Origin: Hydractinia symbiolongicarpus
Taxonomy: Eukaryota
Length of the DNA stretch: 64,000 nucleotides
Assembly: GCF_029227915.1 (NCBI RefSeq)
Contig: NC_079879.1
Location: 27,379,095-27,443,094, forward strand
Direction: 5' to 3'
Part shown: piece after piece, positions 12,590 to 64,000 of the stretch
How positions within the stretch are numbered: position 1 is the first letter of the stretch
Layout of the letters: each line of letters opens with the position of its first letter
Notes under the pieces: model-generated
What the model was told of the DNA's origin: nothing
The model's input: only the letters and a program-made list of their open reading frames with translations
Database searches by the model: none
Translations under genes and position numbers: made by a program

Positions 12590-12595
12590 GCCGAG

Positions 12596-20283: not shown

Positions 20284-20440
20284 TAATTTTCCTAGCAAAA
20301 TTAGGATTTTTTATGTCAAATAAATAGCTAGTTCTAAATGTTTCTTTAATTTTTGGACTAGTTGGTTTCAAAATAAAAAATATAAGCACACAACAGCACA
20401 AAATATAAACATACAACTCAAGAATATCAAAAACATAACC

Positions 20441-22873: not shown

Positions 22874-22988
22874 CATTCACTCGCCAATATTAAATCGCCG
22901 TCCATATTAAATCGCCGTCAATATTAAATCGCCGTCAAGGGGAATCGAGGCCCGGTTTCCCGCACAAAGTTGAGAGAGCTACGGCGCT
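22874..22988 (-). mobile_element. 5' (tRNA-like head) fragment of the SINE with 17-bp triplication
   Basis: cattcactcgcc...(atattaaatcgccgtc)x3...aaggggaatcgaggcccggtttcccgcacaaagttgagagagctacggcgc. Confidence 0.45.
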
Positions 22989-26362: not shown

Positions 26363-26420
26363 GTAGCTTTGGACCCGTCTGGTCACGTGGTTGAACGTGA
26401 CCAGACGGGTCCAGAGCTAC
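26363..26420. repeat. strong palindrome: perfect 17-bp stem ggacccgtctggtcacg / cgtgaccagacgggtcc with 8-nt loop, flanked by imperfect gtagct...agctac extension
   Basis: Direct reading at 26371-26412. The stem-loop junction contains the CACGTG E-box. Confidence 0.7.
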
Positions 26421-27283: not shown

Positions 27284-27644
27284 CGCTGTTGTAGATTAGT
27301 GGTTATAGCTCTCGTATTCTGTACGGGAGACCGGGGTTCGATTCCTCTTGACAGCGATTCAACATGGGCGAGTGAATGTTACCATAGCCCAGGGTTAACC
27401 CAAGCCATGTCAGGGAAATTGGGGAGATGGCTCCATGTGTGGGCCGTTGGATGTTGTCGGGAGTTGTCTAGTAGAGCGTGGGCCCTAATTGGGTCTGTGT
27501 AGCTCAAATTGAGCATTAAATACTCTAGGACTCTCCATCTAAGCCATGGCCCCTCCTGGAAAAAATAGACAAGGTATATCCCTCGATATTAGTGAGGCTA
27601 GCCATTGTATATAAAATATGCACATCTATCTATCTATCTATCTA
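27284..27644 (+). mobile_element. tRNA-derived SINE, full-length copy with (ATCT)n tail
   Basis: gtagattagtggttatagctctcgtattctgtacgggagaccggggttcgattcc... The body is ~90% identical to the 19912 copy. The tail is atctatctatctatctatcta. Confidence 0.8.
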
Positions 27645-28273
27645 AACTTCTTGTCTGTCTGATAAATCGTTGTCATCTCTCGAGTAGCCTATCAATTAAA
27701 ACTCTGAAGGTAAATGACATCTATGTATAGATATTGTGGGAAGAACTGAATTTTTATTTTACTCCAGCATCATTGGCGCAATGTCATTGAATAAGTCTTT
27801 GAGTTTACTGCTGCAGTACGCAAATATAATTATATATTACAGAAGATTCTAAACACCAAAAATTGCAGCAGATATTGTTTTTATGAGTCTGATAATCCTT
27901 TTTATGTCTTCGCAATCACAGTGTGTAAGAAGGAAAAAGGGAGCCAGTTGGTCATTTACTGAGGAAAAATGTGAACAAGAAAGTTTTTTATAGTTAAAGG
28001 AGCAACTATTAAAGCCATTCTAACAATTCATAATAATCTGACACTTGTATCAATATCCTTCCTGTAACACAATCCCAAAAAATGATAGAGTACACATCCA
28101 CAGAGCCAGAGATAAAGAGATTTTGGGCTTTTTCTAAATATTGAACAAGACAAGAAAAAAATAATGATAACACATGTAATATTAGCCAAAACAAAAGGGA
28201 GAAAATATTGACGAAAAAGAAAAAAGTGAAACAAAACATATTTGTAATGATTAACAAAATAAAAATAAAAAAC

Positions 28274-36789: not shown

Positions 36790-37109
36790 GTAAGTTCTAT
36801 CATTTTTCATGTTATTATTTTGTCCATCATCAAATAGTTTTATACTTTTTAACATTTATTACTGACATGTGTTAAGATTTATTTTTATGCTTGTCCACCT
36901 GCAAACTATGTCCTTAAACAAAAAAAGGCACTGCTACCTCTAACAGCGGGTTGTGGGAGGGACCAAAGTGGCATTATCTCTAAAATAATAGCCATTGTTT
37001 GGGTTTTCCTGAGACTCTCTGCACATATGAAAGTATTTTTTTGAAGTTTTTTTACAAAACAATTTTTAGTGTTCCTCACACTAAACATTTTTTAAACATT
37101 TTGCCATGT

Positions 37110-37895
37110 TGGTTGATCAAGTAATGAAAGTTATTGAAAGAGTGATTGATAAGTTACTTAGAGAAACAATTGATATAGATAAGATGCAATTTGGTTTTGT
37201 TCCAGGGCGTGGCACTACAGATCCAATATTTTTACTCAGACAACTTCAGGAAAAGTATTTAGGAAAGAGAAAGAATTTCTATTTTGCCTTTGTAGATTTA
37301 GAGAAAGCTTTTGATAGAGTGCCACGTAAAGTTATTTGGTGGGCTATGAAAAAATTAGGTGTGGATGAGTGGCTAGTTACGATGGTACAGTCTATGTACA
37401 GCAATGCTAGAAGTCGTGTCAGGATTAACGATTCACTTAGTGATGAATTTAGTGTGAATGTTGGTGTACATCAGGGTTCTGTACTTAGTCCTTTGTTGTT
37501 TGTTCTAGTCTTAGAAGCGCTGTCGATGAATTTCAGAACAGGTTGTCCATGGGAGTTATTGTATGCAGATGATTTGGTTCTCATAGCAGAGTCGATGGAA
37601 GAATTAGTTGAAAAGTTTGAGAAGTGGAAGAAAGGACTAGAAGAGCTAAGGGTGAACACATCAAAGTCTAAAGTCATGATTAGTAGCATTGCAGCCAAGT
37701 GTGACCTTGTAGTTGGAAAGTGGCCTTGTGGAGTTTGCAGGAAAGGGGTTGGTAGTAACTAAATTTTTTGTCAGACTTGCAAGCATTGGGTACATAAGAA
37801 GTGCAGTAGTATTGGTGGAAGGTTAGGACCAGACATCCAGTTTGTATGCAATGTGCAAAGGTGAGATTATAGAGAATGAAGTATTTCCAGCATTT
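37110..37895 (+). mobile_element. internal 0.8-kb fragment (RT core) of the same LINE family as 9175..12628, inside an intron of the plus-strand gene
   Basis: ~95% nucleotide identity to 11166..11955. Its ORF (37106..37762) keeps FGFVPGRGTTDPIF and YADDLVLIA. Truncated at both ends. Confidence 0.85.
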
Positions 37896-37937
37896 CATTG
37901 CAAAGCGACCTGCAAATGCTCACTGTTGTGTTTCAGA

Positions 37938-38334
37938 ATGATCCTGATATTTGGCTACCTTCATTTCAAGATTTTATTGATGTTTTGTTATTCTTTGGAG
38001 CTGATGTCACTGTTTTAATTCCTGAAACCTCACCACCTCATCTCCTCACCTACAGAACAGTTAAAAAAAACAATCAAGAAAATATATCTGTTCACTCTAA
38101 CACGACTAGAAAATCTTTCAACACCAACTTGCATAATTTCACGTCGTTTGTGAAACTGCTCACAATATACATTCAGACATTCCCATTGCGTTACGGTATT
38201 GATGAATTGAATTCTATGCTTCTTCTGAGTTTTCTTTTCAATGTCGAAAAAGTTTTGCAAGTTGCATTGTGGGATATAAAAGTTTTAATTGGTGCATTGT
38301 TGGATGCATACAGTGCAACGCAATGGAAGGAAGA
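37938..38334 (+). CDS. coding exon 5 (NDPDIWLPSFQDFIDVLLFFGADVTVLIPETSPPHLL...LLDAYSATQWKEE)
   Basis: Acceptor ctcactgttgtgtttcag|AATGAT in phase 0, matching exon 4. 132 codons open. Candidate donor GAAGAG|gtgatt. Confidence 0.45.
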
Positions 38335-41300
38335 GGTGATTTTATTTATTTATTTTGTTATAGTTTTATTCTTGTTGTTAATCATCATTGCGTTTCTTCT
38401 GTCTCTCAATTTTAAAATTTCTTGTACATGTCTCTACCCGAACAAGAAACTACTTTTTAAAGAGTGTTGTCATAAAATGCTTTTAATTTTATATCGAATG
38501 ATATAAAAAAACTCATTTTAAAAATTATTGAATTAAACTTAATTTTAAAAACTTTGCAAGACTTAAATCAGTCTTGAAAAACCTGGAAAAACACCCACAA
38601 AAGCTTACTTCTTTAAAATCAAGATGGATGTTTTTGTCTTTTTAATGTCAAATTGACATTTCTGGTAAACCATCAAACCGGTTTACAAATAACTACTTGT
38701 GTTTTTCCCTTTTCATTTTTTTTATGACTTCTTATGATCTTATACTTGCACCTTGATGTTTTGTTATTAGTTAATTAGCTTTATTTTCCCAGGAGAATAT
38801 AAAGTGTTGCCATGACAATCTTTTTTTCAAGTTGATTGAAATTTTGCAGGATATTTTCCTCTTTTAAAAACAATTATACCTTATATTTCTTTTTGTAAAT
38901 TATGATGTCATATTAAGAAATAGTAAATATCACTTATTTTAGAACTGTTACGTGACATTCAATTTTTATCAATCTGTACGTAATATAGACATGAATTCCA
39001 TGTAACAATCGTTTGATAGTCCCAGGCCTCCTAAATGTTGCGCTTTGGTATGTAACTAAATATTAAGGGTAGTTCTGTATAGGCCTTATATACGTACTCG
39101 CAAAATTTTATTAAAAACTGTTGTTTAGGTCCCAAGTTAGGGTTCGAGAAAAAAAATAGGGAGCCTACGACGAGAAAATGAGTGCCAGCACAGTTCTAAA
39201 ATATCTGGTAATATCTCGGTCTTCTTATGAAGAAGCTCTTATGAAAATACTTATGCATGCTTTAATGAAGAACAATTGTAAAAGTTTTTTGAATTCTAAA
39301 CAAATAAAAAGTTTGTGTTATAGATGCATGCTATATGTACATCTGTTTCATCTATGGATATACATCACAGAAACTTGTTGCAAATTGTGGAAGCTATACC
39401 TCCGACACGTCGTGGTGTACATTTTCAACAACAGCTGGCCTACCTTCTTGTGAATTTGATCCTCAAAAAAACTACGATAGAGGCTGCAGAAATTATCTTA
39501 GTAAGTGTTAACCAAATTCACTGAGGCTCTTAAAAAGTTCTGGAACAAATTTTGATCCAAATTTTTGTCATTTATTCATCTCAAGCAGCTACACGATTTT
39601 TATCCTCATCCCCAACTTTGATTCCCGATTCTGCTATTTTAATTACTTTCGTGCGCAATAATTTGTGTCAAAGAACAAGTTAGAGGCTTTTTACCCTACC
39701 GAAAAAAATACCTAATACCGAAATACTGAATATGTATTAAATATATATTAAAAAATGCAAAATCGGTTTTTTTCTTTGTAAAATCTTGTGATTGATTACA
39801 TGTTTAAGTCAGTTATGCATTTTTAGCCTCGTCACGTGATGTCATTACTGCAGTATATTCGTATAGATGAAAACACAGATTATTTTGAGTTATTTTCTGC
39901 GTGCTCTATGCTGTCAAGTGTTTTGTGTGTTGATGATGTGGCGTCATCAGAAAAGGTTTGTAATTTTCTGTCATTCAACATCGGCATCGAAATACTTGGT
40001 CAATAGGCTGTTAAGCGAACTTACACTCATTTGATAGTTTAAAGTTGCTTAGAGAACCATTTGCGCAGGATGCTCTAAATTAATCAACTGACAGCGGTAA
40101 CAGTTCAAATTTCGGTCCTGCAGATATCATCGCTTTTGGTAGCCATTGCTCTTGACTCAGGGGCGTAGACAGAAAAAAATAACCTTAGTCGAACCATAGA
40201 CCCGCAGGGTCAACATCGCACCACAGCTGCGGTAATAACCAACTGGGTGTTTGAGGGGCGTTGTGAGCCTCCCAACGGGTCCGGAAGCCAACGCTTTTTT
40301 ACGCCCTTTAAGCACTGAAACGCTATAAAACCGACTCTCTGACGTACGCGATAGACGTTAAGTATTGATCAAATTGATCGAAGAAGGGGAATAAATGAAA
40401 ACATAAAATACATTAAAATCTTTATCATCAAGGGTGTAATCAAACCAGCAATAAGACAACGCAACACCATCATAATGTTTTTAATAGATTGAAAGTTATT
40501 AAAGCAATAATTAAAATGTTCATTCTTCTTTTTCATATTTAGCACCAAAATAAAGTTTTCTGCAGATTAGAAGTCACCATGCATGATTACCTCATAAACG
40601 CTAGTACTCCTTACTCTCACTACCTATATCATCTGGAAGTTTTTTGTCAACATATTAATTTCAGGGAATCATTTTAATTTAGACGAATTTATCCAACATT
40701 GCTTCAAAACTAGGAAGCCTTCATGCGAGCATAAAAGAATGTCAAGGTCGTTATCTTGATAGAACTAAGGTAATGTTGATCAGTACGTATGTTTTTATAA
40801 TTATGTAGGTAACCTAGGGCAGAATATTTGAAAAGATGCATAAATCACTTTTTTGTTATGCGATAAAGATCAAATATTTGTTCACACGTAATCATCTTGG
40901 TTATTAATTTTTGCTACTCAATTATGTTCAAGGTTATAAATGATAGCCGACTCAAAGAGGAAAATGATTTTTGTATGTAGTTAAAAGATTCTTTTGAAGT
41001 TTTTTATTTTCTTTTTCTTTTTTGTCTTCCAAGTTTTTAGATCAATGTCTTGTGATCACAAAAAAGCAAACAGCAAACTTGAGAAATTTGTAGTTTTGTA
41101 AAAGAGATCGCATTTGTAGAAGAGGGGTCATTTTTTTTTCGTGTCTATTAAACCTTCAAATTTTATTTTTTCTTAATAATTTTTATAGCATTATATAGGT
41201 AATCATATAGGCTTTCTAAAAATATCTACATTAATATATCAAAATAAAGTTTTGGTGAATTAAAAGCATTTTAAAATATCACACCTTTTTTGTATACTCA

Positions 41301-46279: not shown

Positions 46280-46705
46280 ATACTGTATTGCGTGCTTCTC
46301 GGTATTGCGCAGCTAAGCTGCCATTTTGCGTGAGAGACGGACAGACGTATACGGGCATTATAATATAGACTAGTCGTTGCCCGTGGAAAAATACACGGGT
46401 TCGTCCGTCCATTATATTTACCCGTCGCAACAAAGTGGATAAAAATGTATCGTATTTGATATTCGTGTTTCCGTAACATCATTTTCTAACTCAGCGGGGG
46501 GTCCGCGCAGAGACAGACAGACGACGGCTATTATTATAGGGACTAGCCGTTAGCCCGTGGAAAAATCCACGGGGTCGCCAGTCCTTCAACTTTACCCGTC
46601 GCAACAAAGTGGATAAAGATATATCGCATTTGATATTCGTGTTTCCGTAACATCATTTTATAACTCAGCGGGGGTCCGCGCAGAGACAGACAGACGGAAT
46701 ACGGC
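46280..46705. repeat. ~167-bp tandem repeat, ~2.5 copies, each containing palindrome CCGTGGAAAAATCCACGG and gagacagacagac
   Basis: 46364..46535 and 46536..46705 are ~85% identical. A partial unit at 46280..46363 shares the ...gagacggacagacgtatacgggcattataatatag end. Confidence 0.7.
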
Positions 46706-47192
46706 TATTATTAAAGATATATACAGACCTTCAATAACAAATCGAACGTGCAATATGGTGGCTTCATATTTCTTCTTTGGTTTTTTACTTTCTTTATCTT
46801 TACTCGCTATTTTATTCGCAAGTTAAGTAGTACAAAATAATAAAGATATGTTCTTTACATTTTGTTTAAGGATACGGTAACACCCTGAGACACATACTCA
46901 GTATATTTAAAATATCCCCTCTGTGCGCTATATTAACCCTAGCAAATATATGTTCTGAAAGCCAAATAAATTATCTATAGAATGATGATCCAAAAAGTAG
47001 AAAAAATATTATATACAAAAATTCACCGTTCCAGTTCATTTTGTCTAACACTTCCCTCAGTAAAATTTTTGTTCGTCGAAAAAAATATCATTGCGAAGCT
47101 CTTATTCACCTTTAAAAAATTTTGCTTTTTTTACTCAAAACAACACGTGGTTCCAAAAATATAGCATATTTTGTGTCACAATAGCTGTTTTA

Positions 47193-47225
47193 TATGGCGC
47201 GCCTGAGGGGACAAAATTAAAAAAA
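47193..47225 (+). repeat. left terminal inverted repeat (33 bp)
   Basis: Exact reverse-complement match to 51456..51488. Confidence 0.9.
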
Positions 47226-47516
47226 TATTTTGTTATTTAAAAAAAGAATATTTTTGTAAAAAAACAGTTTTTTTGAAGAAAATACTTATTTTTTGAAATT
47301 TTTAAAAAATAATAATGAAAAAACAACAACGAATAAACAAAAAGATATAAAAACAATTTGATTTATTTTATTGTTCATTTTTTTGAAAAAAAATGAAAAA
47401 CAGTTGGAGAACATTTTTGTCCGACGGCCAGGCTCTATCAATCAATCATTTTTGTTCGACAGCGTAACCTGTTCTGCAAATTATTACTTTGTTCGCCCTC
47501 CTGTGGCACTCCTAAA

Positions 47517-47679
47517 ATGGCGCAGAAAGAAAACAACATGAGCTCTGCACTTGAAGGCCTCAGCAACCTTGTTCGTGCTTTGGAACAGCACAAAAAGAAG
47601 CCCGAGCAGAACAGCGAATCAAACAATGTTGAAGAAGCTGTACATTTACTCTTCCGTCCAAATAGACAAGAGAAAAATG
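47517..47679 (+). CDS. exon 1 of transposon-borne HECT-like gene (MAQKENNMSSALEGLSNLVRALEQHKKKPEQNSESNNVEEAVHLLFRPNRQEKN)
   Basis: ATG in good context (ctaaaATGG), donor G|gtaaaaag at 47680, phase 1. Confidence 0.5.
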
Positions 47680-47866
47680 GTAAAAAGCTACGTTATTTTG
47701 TTTCACAAACCACTTTCAGTTTTTTGGTTTTGTGACTTATATAGCTAGTAGCAATCTAGCTAAAAACCAAGTTGCAATGACTACAATATATATTTTTCCC
47801 GAAAGAGCTGGTATGGGTAACAGCTATTTTTGTGACCTTTGTAATGTCATTTTTGAATTATTTTAG

Positions 47867-48745
47867 AACACGCAGATCGGAACACTCTCAGCAGACGATT
47901 ACCATCTTCCACCAAGAGACCTTTTACTAATACCAATAGTAATACTTCTAAGCGAAGGAAATCTGCAACATTCATGAAAGATCTTGTGTTAATTCCTTCA
48001 CCAAAGATTAAAGTTATACCGAAAGGTGAATTGAAGGAACATTTACAATCATCAGGATTTATTGTTAATGCCTTCGAAGTTTTACTTGAAGCTCAGGAGG
48101 AGGAAATCAGAGAAACGATTTTTGAAAAGTTCCAAGATAAACTTCCAAGCAAGAATCAATTTTCATTTATGAAACCTGTACATAAAAAATTAATGAATCC
48201 TTCAGGCATAAATAACATAAATGGAAAAGTTTTAAAGCATTTGTCTTCTCCTGGTATAAACGGGTGCATATATATCAGGTCTTTAATTGACATAACTAAA
48301 AGTTATTTTAGTGCATTCATCAATTGCTATGAAGAAGAAGAAAAGGTTAAATCTGACAGTGACGATGGATTATTAGAAACGCCAGCATTTGGATTAATTA
48401 AAGATGTAAATAACTATACTTCAACAGGCCAAATTGAGTCATCATCTCAAAGTTCATCAAAGGATCTTGTGCTTGAACAATCAGAAAAAAAACTTGGCTG
48501 CAGTACAGAATTTGTGATGAAGAATTTGGTTGATATTCGTACAATTCATGCGGCAACAGGGAACAAACAAAAAATTTCAATCAACAGGTCAGATACATAT
48601 TTAAAAACCACTTTAATTCAACATAAACGTGGTCAAATTGACATATCTTACTTCCCAGAAGTAACCTTCGAAAATGGAGAAGAAGGCATGGATGCAGATG
48701 GTCCAAAAAGGGAATATTTTTACATATTACTTGATCGATTGATAC
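47867..48745 (+). CDS. exon 2 of HECT-like gene; ends with the HECT N-lobe start motif ...ISYFPEVTFENGEEGMDADGPKREYFYILLDRLI (3' junction uncertain: candidate donors at 48746, 48761, 48763; ORF runs to stop at 48795)
   Basis: Acceptor ttattttag| at 47866 restores frame with exon 1 (G+AA = Glu). GEEGMDADGPKREYFYILL matches the HECT consensus GEEGIDAGGLTREFFTLL. Confidence 0.5.
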
Positions 48746-48901
48746 GTGGAGAAGGAATATGTGTCATCATTCTACTTTACATTTTTACTTTCTAGAAAAT
48801 TTTTCCAATTTTTTATAGGACTATAATTTGTATTTTTAATATTGTTTGCAAGTTGATGTATTTCTTATGGGTGTAAAATTTGCAGCTTCTTTTTATTTTA
48901 G

Positions 48902-49122
48902 CTATCACAACAAAAGACCTATTAGTATTTCGTTGCTCTTCGCCAGTTCCTTTAGAAAATGGCGTTACTCTAAAGTTCAACAGGAGAGGTAAACCATTGC
49001 CTGATGCAGATACGTGTCTTTCGATACTTTCGATTCCAATTTGTCATGATGCATATAACGATTTCAAAAAGGCAATTGATGCTACCTTACGATTACAAGG
49101 ACAGGGTTTTGGACGTTTGTGA
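48902..49122 (+). CDS. last exon of HECT-like gene: HECT C-lobe end with catalytic Cys (...FRCSSPVPLENGVTLKFNRRGKPLPDADTCLSILSIPICHDAYNDFKKAIDATLRLQGQGFGRL*)
   Basis: Matches HECT C-terminal consensus ...VTGSSRVPLxGF...LPxAHTCFNxLxLPxYxSxExLxxxLxxAIxxxxGFGxx. The Cys lies ~35 residues from the C-terminus. Candidate acceptors are cag| at 48885 and ttttag| at 48901. Stop at 49120-49122. Confidence 0.55.
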
Positions 49123-49667
49123 GTTTTTAATATATATATACATGGTTTTTTTTCTTTTTGCCGTCCTAAAACGTCCAAAGTTATACAAACCTGGAAGTTT
49201 AAAAAGATTATTATATAAGATTATTATATATTATATAAAAAGATTGTTATATTATATGTTGACATTATTTTTTATTTTGCATTTCTGCAGTTTTTCTTTA
49301 CTTTTCGTTATATAAAAAGGAGACTTATTGACTTAACTAATTTTCATAATGCTAATAACAATAAAAGGCCTGAAAGTTTTTTACGTTAGTGAAAAATATA
49401 TGTGTAGGATACTATGTTTTGTTAGTGATTACTAAAGTTTTTGTTATTTAATACGAGTAAATGTGAACTTCTGATTAAAGTATTTCTTTGATACACTAAA
49501 ATACATTTTTGTCTCTGTTAAAAATTAACAACTTTTTAACTTTACATACTCCTACTATCAAGTGCCAAATAAACGCCAACCCACCAACCGAATTAATTTT
49601 TTGACCCTTATGTTTCATCGCGAGAGCTTAAAATCGTTTGTTTGTTATTCGACCGTACATCAGCTTA

Positions 49668-50439
49668 TCATAGCGCATGTACCAATAATTCACGAGTTTG
49701 AATGTACAAGTTTATTCCGTGATTGTGGTCTTCAGAAAGCGGGTCAATATTTTGCATAAAATTGTCTGGTAAATTCAGAGCTATCTCAGGAACATTTACG
49801 TTGTTGATCGAATCTATTAAAGGAGCTGGACCGTCAAGTTCGACTCCATGTGTACCAATGTTTTCATTTTCCTCCATTATCTGTCTCAAACCGTTATCAG
49901 AAGAATGCCAGTTCATATACATGCCTTGAGTCCACAGCTGATACGGCGTTCTATTGCCTTCAGTTGATAAAGGATGATTATTCCACTGCTTCACAAATTT
50001 CTCGCAAGCACGATTAATTCTAGGCAAAAACACGCTATGCAATGCGTACAAATCTACATCATTTACGGGGTCTAACATTTCTTGCTGCTCCATGAAATAA
50101 AAAATGCCTTTAAAATAATCAACCACCTGTATGACTAAGTCGCGCCAAAGCCTTTCGATTCTTTGATTATGCACTGATAGTCCAGTTATGACAGGCTTAC
50201 TGGCCACACCAAAGTGTCCCAGCATCCATCGTGCCACTTCAATATTTTCTGTACCGTGGTCAGTGCGAATTCTCCTAGGGACATTGTATTTATTGATGGC
50301 TTCCAGAAATAGATCTAATACGGTAGTGCTTCTGTTATTTGAATTACATCTGAGAAATGTTACTAATCTTGAATAACCATCTATACATCCGTGAAACACA
50401 ATGCGCCATCTAATTAACTTATGATGACCATCCATATGC
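49668..50439 (-). CDS. integrase exon 2: rve (retroviral-type integrase) catalytic core, D-D-E intact (HMDGHHKL ... IRTDHGTEN ... NQRIERLW)
   Basis: A 73-bp GT-AG intron (plus 50440..50512; minus gtaagtaag...attcttttag) joins ...SLW to HMDGHHKL in frame. D1-D2 spacing is 56 aa and D2-E spacing is 35 aa, typical of rve domains. Stop at 49668-49670. Confidence 0.7.
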
Positions 50440-50512
50440 CTAAAAGAATATTTTAAGAAATGGATATGGGCATAACGCAAACACCGTTTGTTAATTAGGG
50501 AAACTTACTTAC

Positions 50513-51201
50513 CACAGCGAATTTGGAGATTTCACATTGTACCTCCTTCTTTGTATACAATTCCTTCGTCTCATCACCCTGCTCAACGCGTCTACCCTCA
50601 TGATTGATTGTCGCAATCTTTCTCTTTTCACCTTAATATGTTTGCTGGTAATTGCACCTATTACCATTCTTTCGCCGCAATTTGGGAGTATCAAAAGCAC
50701 TTCTCGAACTATTTCATCGAGTTGTTGATCAGTTATGTCTGAATATTCTGCTTCTCCAAAAGGTAAATCAAATTCTTTACGACGACGACGGAGTGTTTTG
50801 ATACTAATACCAAGCATTTGAGCAATGTCCTTCCATTGATATCCGATCTTTTTCAAGCTAATGACTTGTTCCTTTGGCACTTCATACTTTGGTCTGCCAA
50901 CCTCACCAGTCACAGCTCTAGGACTAATGTAAGCATTGCTTTTATCACCACCTCGACAACGATGTTTCACTAGTTCTTCATAAAAATTTTGTAGTGACCT
51001 AATAACTTTTGGTATACGATCACTTATATCAGGCACTTGTAAGTACTCTAAGTATATTGATGCTAAATTCCATATAATTTCGTCAAACTGAATGTTGTAA
51101 ATTTCCTGCCCGATTTCATTCAAGGGCAAAAACCTGTTTCTTTCTAAACCATTTAGAAACGTAATTGCAGCTGTAACATGTGGAACATATACCGCCATCA
51201 T
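50513..51201 (-). CDS. integrase exon 1: N-terminal region with helix-turn-helix (ISLKKIGYQWKDIAQMLGISIKTLRRRRKEF) up to ...RRRYNVKSPNSLW
   Basis: ATG ATG at plus 51201/51198 on the minus strand. The exon ends ...ctgtg|gtaagtaag (phase 2), which splits the Trp codon. Confidence 0.65.
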
Positions 51202-51455
51202 TGTTTTTCTAACATCTTCATTTTTGCGCAAAATTTTAAATAAAATGCCGAACAGTCATACTTGTCGAAATTTTGATTGATTGATTGACAGGTGCCACAA
51301 AAAAAGAAAAAAACATTTTTTGAAAAAAGTAATAATTTTTTTCAACTAAAAAGAAAAAAAATTGCGAAAAAAAATTTTTTTTCGTATTTTTTAATATATT
51401 TTAATATCAAAAATGTTTTTTTCTTGGAAAAAAGTTTTTTTGTTTATTTTTTGGG

Positions 51456-51488
51456 TTTTTTTAATTTTGTCCCCTCAGGCGCGCCATA
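51456..51488 (-). repeat. right terminal inverted repeat (33 bp)
   Basis: Exact reverse-complement match to 47193..47225. Confidence 0.9.
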
Positions 51489-53187
51489 GTTTTATGACAG
51501 ATTTATCATTTTATGCATGATAGATCAATAACTCGATATTTCCTCACTTTCTGCGTTAAAAAAAGCAAAGCTTTGTAGCCAAAGATATAATTGTCGCAAC
51601 AAACTTGTTTTCGTACAATTTCGACAAGATGGAGGGGAGTGTTCGACAAAAATATATACCGTTACGACTGAAAATTTTATTTCGAGAAAAAGCAAATCAA
51701 AGATCTTTGCTTTTACCTGCAAGAATCATAGTTACACACACTTAAACGTGAATATTTTATTTCAAATTAAAGGCAAAGTATTTTCGCAGAACTTTGGGTC
51801 TAGTTATTGTTAAACAGACAACACGATAACATAACATAACAGAATAAAAACGAAAAAAATAAAGAAATAAATTAAAAAGGTATAGATGATAAATAACAAT
51901 ATATTTGTATAGATTATTAAAGTGTTAATGTTTCCTATGTTATATGTAGGGATGCAATTTTTTATTCGTTCTGCATAACTCTTTTTAATTATTATACAGA
52001 TTAAATATATTTAAGGAATTTTAAACTTTGAGCACACTTTTGAAAACACTAAAAAATAAAGAAGATTTTTCTTCATTTTATCACTCTTAACAATAAATAT
52101 TTTTGATTCTTTTTTAAAAAATATCAGGAAATTATACCAAAGAATCAAAATTAAAAAAAATATTTTTTTTAAAAAAATGACCCTGAAGGGGGTTACCGTA
52201 TCCTTAATACTTTTGCCATTTTGATCTTTAACTTTTTTTATTAAATCATATGTACATTGACCCCATGACAATAACAATAAAAATTGTTTTTTAATTTAGC
52301 CACCCGTTTGACAAACGAGTAAAAGTACTCAATTATAAATAATTCAGCACTCACAAAAATGTAAACAATATGATGTGTGGTTTATAGTTATAGTTTATAG
52401 AGCAGGCGAGAAAGGCAATCAGTCTGGTCCTTAAAATCAACGCTTATCATAAACTTTTATTCAGCAGCCGTGCAGCAGCGCAGTTCGCCTCTTCTTTAAA
52501 ATATAGAATAGCCTACGTGATTATGGCGGCGAACTTCGAACTTCAAAATGAGCTGTCTTGTTTCAATATATTTTGTCCATTAAACTTAAGCTTTCTTTAA
52601 GGATATCAAAATGTAGTTTCTCGCATACGAAAGTTTAGACGTAAGGCTCGAATTCAAGTCAACCAATAGCAAACCAATTTTGCGAAAAAAAACATAATTC
52701 AAATAAATTAATTAGCACAACGCTTAACTTCAACACTAAATCCGCGAAAATAAATTCTCTTATTTCCCACGAAATCCCAGAGAGAAAAAAACCCGGAAAG
52801 CCCAGGGGTTCAGCGGAAGCAATATTATTCCATACAAAAAGCAAGGAAATTGAGAATTTAAAACAAACGAACTTATTAAGGAGAGCTTAATTCTCTCAAA
52901 ATGTTTTAAAACTATTGAAAACAAAAATAATAATAAGAAAAAGATATTGGGTATGTGGTTGAACGAAAGTTGTAAGAAATACAGGACCAATAGGATTTGG
53001 AAATCAAACAAATACTCTTCGCATAGCGCCGGAAATAGCATAAACGTTTGTATTAATATATTAATATTTGTAAAGGATTCTTCTAGCAACAAGACCATGG
53101 TAAAAAGAAAGATAAAAAATGATTTAAGATAAATTCTCACAAGGTCGAAATTCGTAAATTAATTCTACAAAGATTCAGAAATCTGTT

Positions 53188-54138
53188 TCATGTCAAAGGC
53201 TTGTCTGCATATCCCAAGTATGTTTTTTTTGCAAAAAAATACATTTTTGGTATAGGACGATAAACTATGGACGCCGTCAATCCTTTAAAACCGAAACTTC
53301 CAATGACTTTATCAGTATTTCGCGTGACATTACAATTCGATCGCAAAGCTGCCCACGTATCATTCATTGTTTCTTGTGCATACCTCGTCCAGGTTCCACG
53401 CTCTGCAGCAATATGTTCTTTGAAGTAGAATCGACCTCCTGGCTTCAAAACTCTCATGATTTCATTTAAAGCTTTGGTTTGGTCTTGAACACAACAAAGC
53501 AAGAGCGAGCTTACTACACAACTGCATGAGTTATCAGCAATTAATCCACTCATATCTTCAACATTTCCAATCAAATATTTCTCCAACGTAACATGCTTAT
53601 TTTTCTCTAAACTTTCGTTTAAATAGGACTTGAAATTCTCATTCAAGTCAATTGTCATTAACCTAACACCTTTAGGGTAGTGTTCCAAGTTAGCGCAACT
53701 ACCAGCTCCAAGTTCCAGCACTGGTCCTCCTCCTACCTGTTCAATCACTTCCTCCATGCTACTGAATAACTCCTGATTCATTTTCTGGATGTCTTTTTGT
53801 TGGGCTTTATTCTTAGCCAAGCGACTGGTATCCCATGCTAAAAACTTTTTAAGTAGGCTTTTCGCTATTGACTGCACAAAAGCTAGCTTGAACAGGAAAT
53901 AAATTGTAAGAGCGAGGATAAAAAACCAGATTAGAAGCGAATAAACAAGTGACATGATGCTTCTAAATGTGAAGAAAAGAAAAATTAACATGTGTAATCG
54001 TTTAGCATGAATGATGAAAACATATAAAAGTGCCATGCCGACTGTTCGCCATGCGATAGGCCAGGTTTCAAAAATAATTAGCTGAGTTACAAAAATAATT
54101 GAGGTTAATCCTGAATCAATAGTAGAAACTGGCTTCAT
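53188..54138 (-). CDS. intronless 316-aa membrane-anchored SAM-dependent methyltransferase, METTL7/TMT1 (thiol methyltransferase)-like
   Basis: N-terminal hydrophobic helices. Motif I VLELGAGSCANLEHYP, then ...CVVSSLLLCCVQDQTKALNEIMRVLKPGGRFYFKEHIAAERGTW, closely paralleling METTL7B VLEVGCGTGANFQFYP...[43 protein letters not shown]. Confidence 0.8.
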   Translation of the reverse strand: MKPVSTIDSGLTSIIFVTQLIIFETWPIAWRTVGMALLYVFIIHAKRLHMLIFLFFTFRSIMSLVYSLLIWFFILALTIYFLFKLAFVQSIAKSLLKKFLAWDTSRLAKNKAQQKDIQKMNQELFSSMEEVIEQVGGGPVLELGAGSCANLEHYPKGVRLMTIDLNENFKSYLNESLEKNKHVTLEKYLIGNVEDMSGLIADNSCSCVVSSLLLCCVQDQTKALNEIMRVLKPGGRFYFKEHIAAERGTWTRYAQETMNDTWAALRSNCNVTRNTDKVIGSFGFKGLTASIVYRPIPKMYFFAKKTYLGYADKPLT

Positions 54139-55410: not shown

Positions 55411-56914
55411 AAAGTAAACAAATAACGTCACAATGGCATCTATCCATCTATATTTTCTTAAATACTGATGTTGTATGAGTGTTTTGAAATTAGGTTGTTT
55501 TGGATTGGGAGGAAACTTTATATTAAAACATTTTTCTTTGTTCCTTATGGTTTGTTCTGTTGTTGTTGTTTTGTTTTTAGCTTTGTCCAGTTCCACCTTC
55601 CCCTGACTGTTAACTAGACATTTGACAATATTTGGAATACTAATATTTTTCCTGACACATTGGACACCGCACCCTACATGACATTCATTTTTTACAAATA
55701 AATAAAACAACTACAGCAGCAAATAAAAACAATCTTACCAAAAACGTTTTTCCACGTGTATACTGTGTTCCAACCGGTGTGTGGTAGAATATTCTGCCCC
55801 CCTAGAATATTCTGCCCCCCCCGTAGTTGTGACTAATTACTTTAAGTATCAAATATTTGTCCGGCTATTGCGTTAAAGATGGCGGAGTTCGCTGTGCTGA
55901 CTGTACACAAAGCTATTATAGGGATATAGGTTAGTGAAAATGTATATATTACAGCCACATATTTGTTCACATTTAGCTTAGTGACAATGTATTACAATAC
56001 ATATTATATTTGTTGACTTACAGCCCCCTTGATTGTGTTTTATATACTCCATATTCATATTAAAACAAAATTCTTTCAGAACATATTAGCTAGCTATAAT
56101 TGACTAAAATACGAACTTTTTCGTTGCATATTACTACATCATCAAGTAAAATGAATTACTAAAACTGTATTACGATTATATACATTAAAAATTACAAACA
56201 TGTCCCGAAAGACGTAAAACTAATAGATGAATTCTGTTGTTTACGTTTTTAGCAGTAGCTAAGCTCTTTCGAAACTTGACACTTGTGAATCATGCCAAAG
56301 AAACATTGGGGCTACTGTCTCATTTCTGAGCAGCTTAAGATTTACTATATATACATCCAAACAAGTCAGTTCTAGTGTCTGCCCAATGCATAGTTTTTAG
56401 TGTTTGTGTTAAACTCTGCTCAGATGACAATAGCCTTAATCAATGAAAGGGTCAAAAAAAAGGAGTCTAATGTAAGGACTTGTTGTGCATGCCTCACCCC
56501 AGGTTTGTTTGAAGAATTATCGGAACATTAATTTCTGTCTTCAATGCCATGAAGTATGGCAAGTCACATTATATAAGTCTTTGGAAAGAGATAACAACCT
56601 AGGACTTAAGGTAGGCCATGGAGAGTTTTGATTTTTTCTGTCAGAATTTTCTATTAAGGATGTACAATGGTGGCTCAAAGTGGCTCAGTTTACCAGACCT
56701 ATACATTTGCCTAAAATTAATCTAATTTTATCCTTCGATGTTATGTATGTTCTTCAGGGTTAGGTGGTACTGGTAGAAACTTTTAAATAGGTGGACGTTG
56801 GTCTGAGGGAGAATTGCCACAGAGCATATCAATACACTTCAGAGTTGTTGGTTGCATTTTTTGCACTCAATATCTTCTTAAAAATCATTCAATATAGACA
56901 TTTTCAATTAAGAT

Positions 56915-59900
56915 TCGAAAAAATCAGGTATGGATGCCTGAATTATTCTGTACCCCCTACAGTTCTGGGCGTACAAATATCTGGCAACGCCATGGGGGGT
57001 ACAGAAAAAATCACGTATGGATGCCTGAATTATTCTGTACCCCCCTACAGTTCTGGGCGTACAAATATCTGGGTACGCCATGGGGGGTACAGAAAAAATC
57101 AGGTATGGATGCCTGAATTATTCTGTACCCCCCTGCAGTTCTAGGCGTACAGTATCCGGCAACGCCATAGGGGGTACAGAAAAAATCAGGTATGAATGCC
57201 TGAATTATTCTGTACCCCCCTACAGTTCTGGGCGTGCAAATATCTGGCTACGCCATAGGGGGTACAGAAAACGTCAGTTATTAATGCCTGAATTATTCTG
57301 TACCCCCCAACAGTTCTAGGCGTACAATATCTGGCAACGCGATAGGGGGTACAGAAAAAATCAGGTATGAATGCCTGAATTATTCTGAACCCCCTACAGT
57401 TCTGGGCGTACAAATATCTGGGTACGCCATGGGGGGTACAGAAAAAATCAGGTATGGATGCCTGAATTATTCTGTACCCCCCTACAGTTCTAGACGTACA
57501 ATATCAGGCAACGCCATAGGGGGTACAGAAAAAATCAGGTATTAATGCCTGAATTATTCTGTACCCCCCCACAGTTCTAGGCGTACAATATCTGGCAACG
57601 CCATAGGGGGTACAGAAAAAATCAGGTATGTATGCCTGAATTATTCTGTACCCCCTACAGTTCTGGGCGTGTCAATCTCTGGCAACGCCATAGGGGGTAC
57701 AGAAAAAATCAGGTATGAATGCCTGAATTATTCTGTACCCCCTACAGTTCTGGGCGTACAAATATCTGGGTACGCCATGGGGGGTACAGAAAAAATCAGG
57801 TATGGATGCCTGAATTATTCTGTACCCCCTACAGTTCTGGGCGTGCAAATATCTGGCAACGCCATAGGGGGTACAGAAAAAATCAGGTATGAATGCCTGA
57901 TTTATTCTGTACCCCCTACAGTTCTGGGCGTGCAAATATCTGGCAACGCCATAGGGGGTACAGAAAAAATCAGGTATGTATGCCTGAATTATTCTGTACC
58001 CCCTACAGTTCTGGGCGTGCAAATATCTGGCAACGCCATAGAGGGTACAGAAAAAATCAGGTATTAATGCCTGAATTATTCTGTACCTCCCCTACAGTTC
58101 TAGGCGTACACTATCCGGCAACGCCATAGGGGGTACAGAAAAAATCCGGTATGAATGCCTGAATTATTCTGTACCCTACAGTTCTGGGCGTGCAAATATC
58201 TGGCAACGCCATAGGGGTACAGAAAAAATCAGGTATGGATGCCTGAATTATTCTGTACCCCCCTACAGTTCTGGGCGTACAAATATCTGGGTACGCCATG
58301 GGGGGTACAGAAAAAATCAGGTATGGATGCCTGAATTATTCTGTACCCCCTACAGTTCTGGGCGTACAAATATCTGGCAACGCCATGGGGGGTACAGAAA
58401 AAATCACGTATGGATGCCTGAATTATTCTGTACCCCCCTACAGTTCTGGGCGTACAAATATCTGGGTACGCCATGGGGGGTACAGAAAAAATCAGGTATG
58501 GATGCCTGAATTATTCTGTACCCCCCTGCAGTTCTAGGCGTACAGTATCCGGCAACGCCATAGGGGGTACAGAAAAAATCAGGTATGAATGCCTGAATTA
58601 TTCTGTACCCCCCTACAGTTCTGGGCGTGCAAATATCTGGCTACGCCATAGGGGGTACAGAAAACGTCAGTTATTAATGCCTGAATTATTCTGTACCCCC
58701 CAACAGTTCTAGGCGTACAATATCTGGCTACGCCATAGGGGGTACAGAAAACGTCAGGTATTAATGCCTGAATTATTCTGTACCCCCCTGCAGTTCTGGG
58801 CGTACAAATATCTGGTAACGCCATAGGGGGTACAGAAGGCGTCAGGTATTAATGTCTGAATTATTCTGTACCCCCCTGCAGTTCTAGGCGTACACTATCC
58901 GGCAACGCCATAGGGGGTACAGAAAAAATCACGTATGAATGCCTGAATTATTCTGTACCCCCTACAGTTCCGGGCGTGTAAATCTCTGGCAACGCCATAG
59001 GGGGTACAGAAAAAATCAGGTATGGATGCCTGAATTATTCTGTACCCCCCTACAGTTCTGGGCGTACAAATATCTGTGTACGCCATGGGGGGTACAGAAA
59101 AAATCAGGTATGGATGCCTGAATTATTCTGTACCCCCCTGCAGTTCTAGGCGTACACTATCCGGCAACGCCATAGGGGGTACAGAAAAAATCAGGTATGA
59201 ATGCCTGAATTATTCTGTACCCCCTACAGTTCTGGACGTGCAAATATCTGGCAACGCGATAGGGGTTACAGAAAAAATCAGGTATTAATGCTTGAATTAT
59301 TCTGTACCCCCCAACAGTTCTAGGCGTACAATATCTGGCAACGCGATAAAGGGTACAGAAAAAATCAGGTATGAATGCCTGAATTATTCTGTACCCCCTA
59401 CAGTTCTGGGCGTGCAAATATCTGGCAACGCCATAGTGGGTACAGAAAAAATCAGGTATGTATGCCTGAATTATTCTGTACCCCCTACAGTTCTGGGCGT
59501 GCAAATATCTGGCAACGCCATAGGGGTACAGAAAAAATCAGGTATGGATGCCTGAATTATTCTGTACCCCCCTACAGTTCTGGGCGTACAAATATCTGGG
59601 TACGCCATGGGGGGTACAGAAAAAATCAGGTATGGATGCCTGAATTATTCTGTACCCCCTACAGTTCTGGGCGTACAAATATCTGGCAACGCCATGGGGG
59701 GTACAGAAAAAATCACGTATGGATGCCTGAATTATTCTGTACCCCCCTACAGTTCTGGGCGTACAAATATCTGGGTACGCCATGGGGGGTACAGAAAAAA
59801 TCAGGTATGGATGCCTGAATTATTCTGTACCCCCCTGCAGTTCTAGGCGTACAGTATCCGGCAACGCCATAGGGGGTACAGAAAAAATCAGGTATGAATG

Positions 59901-62900
59901 CCTGAATTATTCTGTACCCCCCTACAGTTCTGGGCGTGCAAATATCTGGCTACGCCATAGGGGGTACAGAAAACGTCAGTTATTAATGCCTGAATTATTC
60001 TGTACCCCCCAACAGTTCTAGGCGTACAATATCTGGCAACGCGATAGGGGGTACAGAAAAAATCAGGTATGAATGCCTGAATTATTCTGAACCCCCTACA
60101 GTTCTGGGCGTACAAATATCTGGGTACGCCATGGGGGGTACAGAAAAAATCAGGTATGGATGCCTGAATTATTCTGTACCCCCCTACAGTTCTAGACGTA
60201 CAATATCAGGCAACGCCATAGGGGGTACAGAAAAAATCAGGTATTAATGCCTGAATTATTCTGTACCCCCCTACAGTTCTAGGCGTACAATATCTGGCAA
60301 CGCCATAGGGGGTACAGAAAAAATCAGGTATGTATGCCTGAATTATTCTGTACCCCCTACAGTTCTGGGCGTGTCAATCTCTGGCAACGCCATAGGGGGT
60401 ACAGAAAAAATCAGGTATGAATGCCTGAATTATTCTGTACCCCCTACAGTTCTGGGCGTACAAATATCTGGGTACGCCATGGGGGGTACAGAAAAAATCA
60501 GGTATGGATGCCTGAATTATTCTGTACCCCCTACAGTTCTGGGCGTGCAAATATCTGGCAACGCCATAGGGGGTACAGAAAAAATCAGGTATGAATGCCT
60601 GATTTATTCTGTACCCCCTACAGTTCTGGGCGTGCAAATATCTGGCAACGCCATAGGGAGTACAGAAAAAATCAGGTATGTATGCCTGAATTATTCTGTA
60701 CCCCCTACAGTTCTGGGCGTGCAAATATCTGGCAACGCCATAGAGGGTACAGAAAAAATCAGGTATGGATGCCTGAATTATTCTGTACCCCCTTACAGTT
60801 CTGGGCGTACAAATATCTGGGTACGCCATGGGGGGTACAGAAAAAATCAGGTATGGATGCCTGAATTATTCTGTACCCCCCTACAGTTCTAGACGTACAA
60901 TATATGGCAACGCCATAGGTGGTACAGAAAAAATCAGGTATTAATGCCTGAATTATTCTGTACCCCCCTACAGTTCTAGGCGTACAATATCTGGCAACGC
61001 CATAGGGGGTACAGATAAAATCAGGTATGTATGCCTGAATTATTCTGTACCCCTCACAGTTCCGGGCGTGTAAATCTCTGGCAACGCCATAGGGGGTACA
61101 GAAAAAATCAGGTATGGATGCCTGAATTATTCTGTACCTCCCTACAGTTCTGGGCGTACAAATATCTGGGTACGCCATGGGAGGTACAGAAAAAATCAGG
61201 TATGGATGCCTGAATTATTCTGTACCCCCCTACAGTTCTAGGCGTACAATATCTGGCAACGCCACAGGGGGTACAGAAAAAATCAGGTATGAATGCCTGA
61301 ATTATTCTGTACCCCCCTACAGTTCTGGGCGTGCAAATATCTGGCAACGCCATAGAGGGTACAAAAAAAATCAGGTATTAATGCCTGAATTATTCAGTAC
61401 CCCCCTACAGTTCTAGGCGTACAATATCTGGCAACGCCATAGGGGGTACATAAAGCGTCAGGTATTAATGCCTGAATTATTCTGTACCCCCCTGCAGTTC
61501 TAGGCGTACACTATCCGGCAACGCCATAGGGGGTACAGAAAAAATCAGGTATGAATGCCTGAATTATTCTGTACCCCCTACAGTTCTGGGCGTGCAAATA
61601 TCAGGCAACGCGATAGGGGGTACAGAAAAAATCAGGTATTAATGCTTGAATTTTTCTATACCCCCCAACAGTTCTGGGCGCACAATATCTGGCAACGGGA
61701 TAGGGGGTACAGAGAAAATCAGGTATGAATGCCTGAATTATTCTGTACCCCCTACAGTTCTGGGCGTGCAAATATCTGGCAACGCCATGGGGGGTACAGA
61801 AAAAATCAGGTATGGATGCCTGAATTATTCTGTACCCCCCTGCAGTTCTGGGCGTACAAATATCTGGGTACGGCATGGGGGGTACAGAAAAAATCAGGTA
61901 TGGATGCCTGAATTATTCTGTACCCCCCTACAGTTTTAGGCGTACAATATCTGGCAACGCCACAGAGGGTACAGAAAAAATCAGGTATGAATGCCTGAAT
62001 TATTCTGTACCCCCCTACAGTTCTGGGCGTACAAATATCTGGGTACGCCATGGGGGTTACAGAAAAAATCAGGTATGTATGCCTGAATTATTCTGTACCC
62101 CCTACAGTTCTGGGCGTGTCAATCTCTGGCAACGCCATACGGGGTACAAAAAAAATCAGGTATGGATGCCTGAATTATTCTGTACCCCCCTGCAATTCTG
62201 GGCGTACAAATATCTGGGTACGCCATTGGGGGTACAGAAAAAATCAGGTATGGATGCCTGAACTATTCTGTACCCCCTACAGTTTTAGGCGTACAATATC
62301 TGGCAACGCCACAGGGGGTACAGAAAAAATCAGGTATGAATGCCTGAATTATTCTGTACCCCCCTACAGTTCTGGGCGTGCAAATATCTGGGAACGCCAT
62401 AGCGGGTACAGAAAAAATCAGGTATTAATGCCTGAAATATTCTGTACCCCCCTACAGTTCTAGGCGTACAATATCTGGCAACGCCATAGGGGGTACAGAA
62501 AAAATCAGGTATGTATGCCTGAATTATTCTGTACCCCTTACAGTTCTGGGCGTACAAATATCTGGCAACGCCATAGGGGATACAGAAAAAATCACGTATG
62601 GATGCCTGAATTATTCTGTACCCCCTTACAGTTCTGGGCGTACAAATATCTGGGTACGCCATGGGGGGTACAGAAAAAATCAGGTATGGATGCCTGAATT
62701 ATTCTGTACCCCCTTGCAGTTCTAGGCGTACAGTATCCGGCAACGCCAGAGGGGGTACAGAAAAAATCAGGTATGAATGCCTGAATTATTCTGTACCCCC
62801 CTACAGTTCTGGGCGTGCAAGTATCTGGCTACGCCATAGGGGGTACAGAAAACGTCAGGTATTAATGCCTGAATTATTCTGTACCCCCTACAGTTCTGGG

Positions 62901-64000
62901 CGTGCAAACATCTGGCTACGCCATAGGGGGTACAGAAAACGTCAGGTATTAATGCCTGAATTATTCTGTACCCCCCAACAGTTCTAGGCGTACAATATCT
63001 GGCAACGCGATAGGGGGTACAGAAAAAATCAGGTATGAATGCCTGAATTATTCTGTACCCCCTACAGTTCTGGGCGTACAAATATCTGGGTACGCCATGG
63101 GGGGTACAGAAAAAATCAGGTATGGATGCCTGAATTATTCTGTACCCCCCTACAGTTCTAGACGTACAATATCAGGCGACGCCATAGGGGGTACAGAAAA
63201 AATCAGGTATTAATGCCTAAATTATTCTGTACCCCCCTACAGTTCTAGGCGTACAATATCTGGCAACGCCATAGGGGGTACAGAAAAAATCAGGTATGTT
63301 TGCCTGAATTATTCTGTACCCCCTACAGTTTTGGGCGTGCAAATATCTGGCACCGCCACAGGGGGTACAGAAAAAATCAGGTATGGATGCCTGAATTTTT
63401 CTGTACCCCCCTACAGTTCTGGGCGTGCAAATATCTGGCGACGCCATAGAGGGTACAGAAAAAATCAGGTATGAATGCCTGAATTATTCTGTACCCCCCT
63501 ACAGTTCTGGGCGTACAAATATCTGGTAACGCCATAGGGGGTACAGAAAGCGTCAGGTATTAATGCCTGAGTTATTCTGTACCCCCCTGCAGTTCTAGGC
63601 GTACACTATCCGGCAACGCCATAGGGGGTACAGAAAAAATCAGGTATGAATGCCTGAATTATTCTGTACCCCCTACAGTTCTGGGCGTGCAAATATCTGG
63701 CAACGCGATAGGGGGTACAGAAAAAATCAGGTATTAATGCTTGATATATTCTGTACCCCCCAACAGTTCTAGGCGTACAATATCTGGCAACGCGATAGGG
63801 GGTACAGAAAAAATCAGGTATGAATGCCTGAATTATTCTGTACCCCTTACAGTTCTGGGCGTGCAAATATCTGGCAACACCATAGGGGGTACAGAAAAAA
63901 TCAGGTATGTATGCCTGAATTATTCTGTACCCCCTACAGTTCTGGGCGTGCAAATATCTGGCAACGCCATAGGGGGTACAGAAAAAATCAGGTATGGATG
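56915..64000. repeat. tandem satellite, 87-88-bp monomer (~81 copies in window, array continues beyond window end), with higher-order repeat structure
   Basis: Consensus-like monomer atcaggtatgRatgcctgaattattctgtaccccc(c)tacagttctgggcgtacaaatatctggcaacgccatagggggtacagaaaaa. Monomer subtypes tgcagttctaggcgtacagtatccgg and aacagttctaggcgtacaatatctgg recur with period. All long ORFs on both strands here are repeat artefacts. Confidence 0.95.

Follow-up and report, generated by a model that had tools for sequence, protein, structure and literature searches.

A HECT-like gene with a missing middle in Hydractinia symbiolongicarpus: very probably the deleted accessory gene of an IS3EU/GingerRoot transposon

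Introduction

The 64,000-nt stretch of the Hydractinia symbiolongicarpus genome analyzed here (contig NC_079879.1; hereafter the window) is AT-rich eukaryotic DNA that contains a HECT-like gene, LOC130645788, in which the start of the HECT N-lobe and the catalytic end of the C-lobe lie close together and the middle of the domain is absent. Is this a minimised HECT protein, possibly a captured host fragment or a decoy or adaptor, as a first-pass annotation made from the sequence alone had suggested, or the remains of a larger gene? The evidence presented below argues strongly that window positions 47193-51488 are a young copy of an IS3EU/GingerRoot transposon, whose accessory HECT gene suffered a single internal deletion. 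The two HECT blocks are the stumps on either side of that deletion, and not a designed mini-protein.

The deletion and the full-length paralogues

The cluster of protein P0001 (90% identity) has two full-length Hydractinia paralogues, P0002 (643 amino acids (aa), LOC130649267) and P0007 (641 aa, LOC130647217). Both share approximately 99% identity with the window protein, and between ...LIRGEG and AITTKDLL... they have an additional segment, SIQLFEGDINHK...NGNEDTVDE. When P0002 was compared with the window by tblastn, aa 1-54, 55-351 and 571-643 mapped at 98–99% identity, and aa 352-570 had no match anywhere in the 64 kb. The first-pass annotation was therefore correct in that the two ends of the HECT domain are present without the middle, and in that the similarity is not random, since these matches lie far beyond chance. 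Its estimate of ~230 missing residues is replaced by 219 codons, and a 655-nt middle is carried by the spliced contigs L002-L004, which were assembled from public runs. The gap between the two blocks is indeed short, although not ~110 nt as first stated: exon-2 homology ends at 48757, which leaves 144 nt to the last exon. The parts of the gene are as follows.

47517-47679, plus strand: exon 1 of the accessory gene (ubiquitin-like domain and HECT), aa 1-54 plus 1 nt, with the ATG at 47517
47680-47866, plus strand: intron 1, GT..AG
47867-48757, plus strand: exon 2, truncated, aa 55-351 (tblastn of P0002, blastn of contigs L001-L004)
47968-48285, plus strand: N-terminal domain of predicted ubiquitin-like (beta-grasp) fold, conserved and intact here, with the motif KDLVLIPSP..IPKG...IYIR
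48496-48756, plus strand: first ~87 residues of the HECT N-lobe, which are kept (aa 265-351) and include GEEGMDADGPKREYF (from the P0002 model and from phmmer against the AREL1 and ITCH HECT domains)
48758-48901, plus strand: remnant of intron 2 (or filler) after the deletion, with TAG at 48793-48795 and the 3' acceptor ...ttttattttag
48902-49122, plus strand: coding sequence of the last exon, which covers the C-terminal two-thirds of the HECT C-lobe (aa 571-643 in full-length numbering)
49123-49317, plus strand: 3' untranslated region (transcript contig L002 aligned to 48900-49317)

The first splice junction, 47679 to 47867, is phase-consistent as previously proposed (G + AA = Glu), and was seen in the spliced RNA-derived contigs L002 and L003. 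The open frame of exon 2 in the window copy runs to ...EVTFENGEEGMDADGPKREYFYILLDRL, and the terminal open reading frame (ORF) ends in ...LPDADTCLSILSIPICHDAYNDFKKAIDATLRLQGQGFGRL with its stop at 49122. The catalytic Cys codon lies at 49015-49017 in the context LPDADTC, which fits LPxAxTC; it stands 34 residues before the C-terminus, close to the ~35 first reported, and the C-terminal GFGRL is intact.

At the left breakpoint (48757), GGAGAAGGAA is followed by TATGTG in the window and by GCATTC in the full-length copies. The normal exon 2, as seen in contigs L002-L004, has the end GTTGATGAAG and is spliced in phase 1 to CTATCAC (window 48902). In the window, the 144 nt after the breakpoint (48758-48901) end in the same acceptor that full-length transcripts use. 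Codons 352-570 were lost in one deletion, together with the splice donor of exon 2 and the 5' portion of intron 2. Outside the deletion, only K52E, S130A, E216K and C581R separate the window copy from P0002, and of these C581R (48931-48933) is copy-specific. A second copy with the same deletion was not found among the members of the P0001 cluster.

Other copies of the family show defects of their own. Window positions 48121-48155 (35 nt) are absent from the paralogue represented by L002-L004, and its reading frame is split in two (295 + 315 aa); therefore, even expressed copies of the family are apparently often defective. A different frameshift, at the C-terminus, is present in P0005 and P0006.

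Logan contig L001, in which intron 1 is still present, was considered as a genomic full-length copy and rejected, as its 3' end is an aberrant join and contains no intron-2 sequence. At 1369-2319 of this contig, exon 2 (..GATGAAG) is joined to TTCCTTTAGAAAA and then to the sequence from window position 48979 on, with intron 2 and parts of the last exon left out. The join represents an aberrant copy, alternative splicing or mis-assembly.

HECT identity of the full-length protein and of the remnant

The Pfam HECT profile (PF00632, length 306) has a gathering score of 23.9 bits. P0002 scored 35.6 bits over profile positions 13-303, and in phmmer searches its GEEGMDADGPKREYF aligned with the corresponding motif in the HECT domains of AREL1 and ITCH. 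An AlphaFold2 model of P0002, built from a 20-sequence family alignment (A1), reached a pLDDT (the model's per-residue confidence) of ~90 over aa 265-640. Foldseek with this model gave 99 PDB matches at E≤1e-3 with ~410 aligned columns, and the best 50 of these were all HECT domains or ligases (Rsp5, AREL1, NEDD4, WWP1/2, HUWE1, Smurf and others). Cys609 is invariant in all 20 family members of the alignment. By score, predicted fold and catalytic residue, the full-length paralogue has a true HECT domain, for which ligase activity is predicted.

The remnant in the window scores quite differently. Its C-terminal piece (80 aa) gave 14.6 bits (profile positions 233-304 of 306), below the gathering score, and the N-terminal 363 aa had no Pfam HECT match. 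Two conceptual in-frame joins of the blocks were also below threshold, with 16.0 bits for the better one and no match for the other. Such a failure of the profile search had been foreseen in the first-pass annotation. In the P0002 model the deleted block covers the remainder of the N-lobe, its E2-binding subdomain (whose absence had also been noted from the sequence), the hinge and, from the C-lobe, the first ~45 residues with the first helix. Helices and strands from 363 to 561 of the model are stripped, and the window copy does not have the bilobal HECT architecture. Because aa 352-570 are deleted, the window copy is not a HECT ligase.

For the N-terminal domain Pfam returned nothing, either in the window protein or in ten relatives; weak zf_UBZ matches in two relatives fall outside this domain. 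Word-index homology searches found one cluster with the deleted conceptual protein and two clusters with alignment A1, and the family was visible only with an exhaustive representative search.

The carrier element has the hallmarks of an IS3EU/GingerRoot transposon

The HECT gene lies within a transposon, as had been suspected. The element is 4.3 kb long (47193-51488) and contains two convergent genes, the HECT accessory gene and a transposase, bracketed by terminal inverted repeats (TIRs) and a target-site duplication (TSD). In addition to the HECT gene, its features are as follows.

47187-47192: left TSD, GTTTTA, with the identical 6-mer at 51489-51494
47193-47225, plus strand: left TIR, TATGGCGCGCCTGAGGGGACAAAATTAAAAAAA (terminus TATGG), 33 nt, 100% complementary to 51456-51488
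49668-50439, minus strand: transposase exon 2 (rva_4/rve integrase core, DD35E; stop included), Pfam rva_4 1.2e-76
50440-50512, minus strand: transposase intron (GTAAGT..TAG)
50513-51201, minus strand: transposase exon 1 (N-terminal region, helix-turn-helix (HTH)), with weak HTH_23/HTH_8 Pfam matches
51456-51488, minus strand: right TIR (terminus ..CCATA), which pairs with 47193-47225
51489-51494: right TSD, GTTTTA, read from the sequence

The transposase is intact (486 aa), and its reconstruction is identical to XP_057307868.1 (LOC130645787). Besides rva_4, Pfam detected rve (1.2e-06), and the D..D-35-E residues can be read in WHMDG, RTDHG and RIERLW. The N-terminus has the weak HTH matches and no zinc finger by Pfam. 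Transposase homologues numbered 3084 at E≤1e-20, in cnidarians, fish, insects, Rhizophagus and a sponge, which fits the reported host range of these elements.

The hallmarks of IS3EU/GingerRoot elements are TA..TA termini (TAYGG..CCRTA), a 6-bp TSD, TIRs of more than 30 bp, and a transposase of the IS3/integrase-like type that lacks an HHCC finger (PMC10045372, PMC12730594, PMC6839031). The TAYGG terminus is itself regarded as a hallmark of IS3EU, and TAYGG..CCRTA has been reported for fungal IS3EU (PMC12730594, PMC10045372). The window element has TATGG..CCATA termini, a 6-bp TSD and a fingerless transposase of the integrase/IS3-like DDE type. By its termini, TSD, TIRs and transposase, as read from the sequence, it is an IS3EU/GingerRoot element of autonomous type. 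As the TIRs are perfect and the TSD is intact, the insertion is young. IS3EU-like elements make up 4.19% of the H. symbiolongicarpus genome, and their structure and function have been called largely unexplored (PMC11934779).

The same pair of genes in other species

The first-pass annotation had proposed that the HECT blocks might be a transduplicated host fragment of the Pack-MULE kind, i.e. that a non-autonomous element had captured pieces of a host HECT gene. Precedents can be named: GingerRoot elements of Selaginella carry gene fragments (PMC6839031), and host-type relatives of the gene exist. In Ptychodera flava (CM083784.1, L007 10001-28563), tandem fn3-HECT genes (P0015 and P0021) belong to the same HECT family with no transposase nearby, and are apparently host-type relatives of the transposon ligase. 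However, the window element has its own intact transposase. The complete gene is present in sibling copies, and HECT and transposase genes are paired, by adjacent LOC numbers on the same chromosomes, at four Hydractinia loci.

Further evidence came from loci of other species, sampled from two directions, namely from HECT relatives (L005 and L006) and from transposase relatives of 45–50% identity (L008, L009 and L010). In the elements of other species (Clytia, a fish-labelled assembly and ENA assemblies), the HECT genes are 27–38% and the transposases ~45% identical to those of the window. In Clytia hemisphaerica (L006, element 9491-27721), a 798-aa HECT gene is convergent with an rva_4 gene, both lying within 171-bp TIRs with TATGG termini and a perfect TSD (AAAAGG). 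The ENA contig L005 (element 7503-17022) has a 648-aa HECT gene with HTH and rva_4 genes within TIRs of ~260 bp, which start with TATGGCGCGCC, the same 11 bases as the window element; no matching TSD was found for these TIRs. In the ENA contig L009 (element 9683-16536), a transposase is convergent with a gene for the N-domain and HECT within 222-bp TIRs (TATGGGGCGCC), flanked by the TSD CGCTCT. The same arrangement is present in L010 (GCA_947598445.1, labelled Oreochromis niloticus; approximately 9609-17567), with the terminus TATGAGG and the TSD CTTTTG. A perfect 6-bp TSD was thus seen in three of the four complete elements (L006, L009 and L010), and the ubiquitin-like and HECT gene stands beside the transposase in all four. 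In L008 only a C-terminal HECT remnant lies beside the transposase, and a search for TIRs detected none. The Cys motif is retained in the proteins of L005, L006, L008 and L009.

Since the HECT and transposase genes are paired within TIRs in other species as well, the HECT gene is a resident accessory gene and not a captured fragment. The intact transposase and the conserved two-gene unit contradict the Pack-MULE proposal, to which we give hardly any credence. Judging from these sequences, the ligase gene has long belonged to this transposon clade; if it was ever captured from a host, the capture would have been ancient and of the whole gene.

As a separate observation, contig L005 contains an extra HECT-like fragment at 5104-5517 (similar to P0002 aa 256-392), outside the TIR-bounded element.

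Possible products of the window copy

What can the deleted gene still encode? Two public proteins match the locus exactly, P0003 (XP_057307869.1, isoform X1, 363 aa) and P0004 (isoform X2, 324 aa). In isoform X1 the exon-2 frame runs through the remnant to the TAG at 48793-48795, because the exon-2 donor is deleted; this adds the hydrophobic tail ICVIILLYIFTF, which is derived from non-coding sequence. The predicted 363-aa product therefore consists of the ubiquitin-like domain and an N-lobe stub. In isoform X2 a good donor, CAG/GTCAGA (last exon base 48587, phase 2), is used, and 48587 is joined to 48902 out of frame, reading SYHNKRPISISLL.... Neither NCBI isoform encodes the C-lobe, and in both the catalytic Cys is out of the upstream frame. 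A HECT ligase cannot be made from this locus; the predicted outcome is either the read-through protein of 363 aa or the frame-shifted one of 324 aa.

Some points weigh against the interpretation as a simple deletion derivative. The deletion has been observed in a single assembly. It is only from the shared acceptor that we infer the position of the right breakpoint and the identity of 48758-48901 as intron-2 sequence. In addition, there are phase-compatible (phase-1) GT sites at 48745 (TAC/GTGGAG) and 48760 (TAT/GTGTCA), and by sequence a minor in-frame product of 420 or 425 aa, joined from one or the other, is formally still allowed.

It is these two sites that would permit a genuinely minimised HECT protein of ~420 aa, in which an in-frame splice from exon 2 to the last exon would give a decoy or adaptor with the catalytic Cys and GFGRL intact. 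Both donors are, however, poor in comparison with the out-of-frame CAG/GTCAGA of X2. The loss of 219 residues, with the first ~45 of the C-lobe among them, would prevent either lobe from folding as modelled, and the joined sequences reach at best 16.0 bits against the Pfam threshold of 23.9. Neither the 420-aa nor the 425-aa join was found among ~15 billion public protein sequences. Above all, paralogues that are ~99% identical are full length (641–643 aa, with a HECT score of 35.6 bits for P0002), and identify the gap as a deletion specific to this copy. The minimised protein originally proposed is thus very unlikely, and a role as a functional decoy or adaptor is unsupported by these results, leaving only a low-probability possibility.

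Another possibility concerns the 363-aa read-through product. Internally deleted P elements encode repressors of the KP type, and the read-through protein, if made, might by analogy compete with the full-length transposon ligase, in a dominant-negative or regulatory manner. The copy retains its promoter side, exon 1 and intron 1 in intact form, the ubiquitin-like domain and the upstream part are likewise intact (3 substitutions in 351 aa), and two isoforms have been modelled by NCBI at the locus. The near-identity of the window copy is uninformative with regard to selection, since its youth alone (perfect TIRs, intact TSD) predicts it. Against a competitor stand the non-coding origin of the tail ICVIILLYIFTF and the restriction of the deletion to this one copy among the members of the P0001 cluster. 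We consider this role improbable.

Finally, the deletion could be an artefact of assembly, caused by collapse between near-identical copies. The family has several copies of ~99% identity, where assemblers can err, and contig L001 contains an aberrant join. However, the sequence behind the junction in the window is not another part of the gene; it is unique, non-coding and closed by the correct acceptor. The element has intact TIRs, an intact TSD and unique flanks. The assembly is described as chromosome-level, and its authors report a check of a repeat consensus against raw HiFi reads (PMC11934779). An artefact is extremely unlikely, and an internal deletion within a young transposon copy is the explanation retained here.

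Other features of the window

The rest of the window is rich in transposable elements. A LINE-like retrotransposon remnant lies at 9542-12589 (plus strand), with an Exo_endo_phos endonuclease, a PHD finger and a reverse transcriptase spread over two ORFs; it coincides with a region of strongly positive GC skew (8-14 kb). Further reverse-transcriptase ORFs were detected at 24474-25568 (minus strand) and 37106-37762 (plus strand), with RVT_1 matches of 4e-20 and 9.7e-27, and the latter is directly followed by an ORF with a CANIN (coiled-coil and Nse-interacting) match of 7.7e-08 (37898-38506, plus strand). Overlapping ORFs on both strands (60371-60892 and 60374-60829) gave a weak match to a Mu-transposase C-terminal domain.

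Close to the transposon, two tandem repeat copies of ~176–204 bp (86.6% identical) are located at 46333-46713, ~0.5 kb upstream of its left end. Approximately 1.7 kb beyond its right end, a 316-aa ORF (53188-54138, minus strand) has a class I SAM-dependent methyltransferase domain (Methyltransf_11, 2.5e-16). The sole Rfam match in the window is a tRNA at 27285-27356 (plus strand; RF00005, 36 bits). The GC content of 56000-64000 rises to 0.40–0.47, compared with ~0.33 elsewhere in the window.

Discussion

The window copy itself is an ordinary deletion derivative. What appears to be new is the conserved ubiquitin-like and HECT accessory gene, an apparently undescribed component of a known transposon superfamily. 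The element shares with published IS3EU/GingerRoot elements the TA..TA termini, the 6-bp TSD, TIRs longer than 30 bp and a DD35E transposase with an N-terminal HTH and no HHCC finger, but the published descriptions (PMC6839031, PMC10045372, PMC11934779) mention no HECT or ubiquitin-like accessory gene. In the searchable literature no description of a HECT-carrying IS3EU, or of any transposon-borne HECT, was found, although Repbase entries may already hold such a two-gene consensus. An unclassified fish repeat with a blastx match to G2E3 has been noted in passing (PMC5638112).

An intact element of the family would encode the DD35E transposase together with an accessory protein of ~643 aa, composed of an N-terminal ubiquitin-like fold and a complete HECT domain. 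The deletion in the window copy would have arisen during or after transposition, e.g. by abortive gap repair, a process that commonly yields internally deleted copies of DNA transposons. The window copy resembles such derivatives (Ac/Ds, and KP of the P element) in being a young, TIR-bounded copy with one internal deletion and a possible truncated protein. In contrast to them, the deletion strikes the accessory gene and spares the transposase, so the copy may still supply transposase. The resemblance to Pack-MULEs, in which host-like coding sequence also lies between TIRs, does not extend to the gene content, as the family carries a whole conserved gene in an element of autonomous type.

The closest parallel is found in fungi, where IS3EU and other DNA transposons carry genes for TET/JBP dioxygenases and alpha-kinases (PMC12730594). 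As in the present family, the TET/JBP-carrying IS3EU have a conserved enzyme gene beside the transposase, in opposite orientation and within the TIRs, and the accessory enzyme presumably has its role in the host and not in DNA cleavage (PMC12730594). The window family differs in its enzyme, a ubiquitin-like and HECT ligase, and in its hosts, which are animals (hydrozoans and a fish-labelled assembly). If the TET/JBP and kinase genes of fungal IS3EU are a guide, the full-length protein is likely to be an active E3 ligase acting against or with host factors. The element would use it on host proteins or on proteins of the transposon itself. Interference of the 363-aa product with the full-length protein would be a further step of low probability.

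The nearest relatives in Clytia, Glandiceps and Saccoglossus are annotated by their sources as G2E3 or 'G2/M phase-specific E3 ubiquitin-protein ligase-like', and share with the transposon protein the HECT signature VxFxxExAxDxGGPxREFF ... LPxAxTC ... GFG. Vertebrate G2E3 has zinc fingers of the PHD/RING type. Pfam detected none in P0002, where HECT was the only match, and the transposon protein differs from G2E3 in its predicted N-terminal ubiquitin-like domain. The hemichordate relatives are tandem fn3-HECT host genes, unlike the transposon ligase.

For the locus itself, the result describes one decayed copy of a repeated gene, and cautions that the two ends left by a deletion can be mistaken for a designed mini-protein. 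A wider proposal can be advanced tentatively, as a real possibility that falls short of an expectation. According to this proposal, a widespread animal clade of IS3EU/GingerRoot elements carries a conserved ubiquitin-like and HECT E3 ligase, with its Cys intact, that manipulates the transposase or host factors of silencing, chromatin or repair, and deleted copies may encode ligase-dead competitors. Many of the multicopy genes named 'G2E3-like' or 'HECT domain-containing' in cnidarians, fish and other marine animals would then be transposon genes and not expansions of host gene families. If this is true, the transposon-borne HECT ligase would be the animal counterpart of the fungal TET/JBP enzymes, and a testable case of a transposon with its own host-manipulating enzyme. 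Multicopy cnidarian and fish genes annotated as 'uncharacterized' or 'G2E3-like' may accordingly belong to transposons, and should be masked before gene-family analyses.

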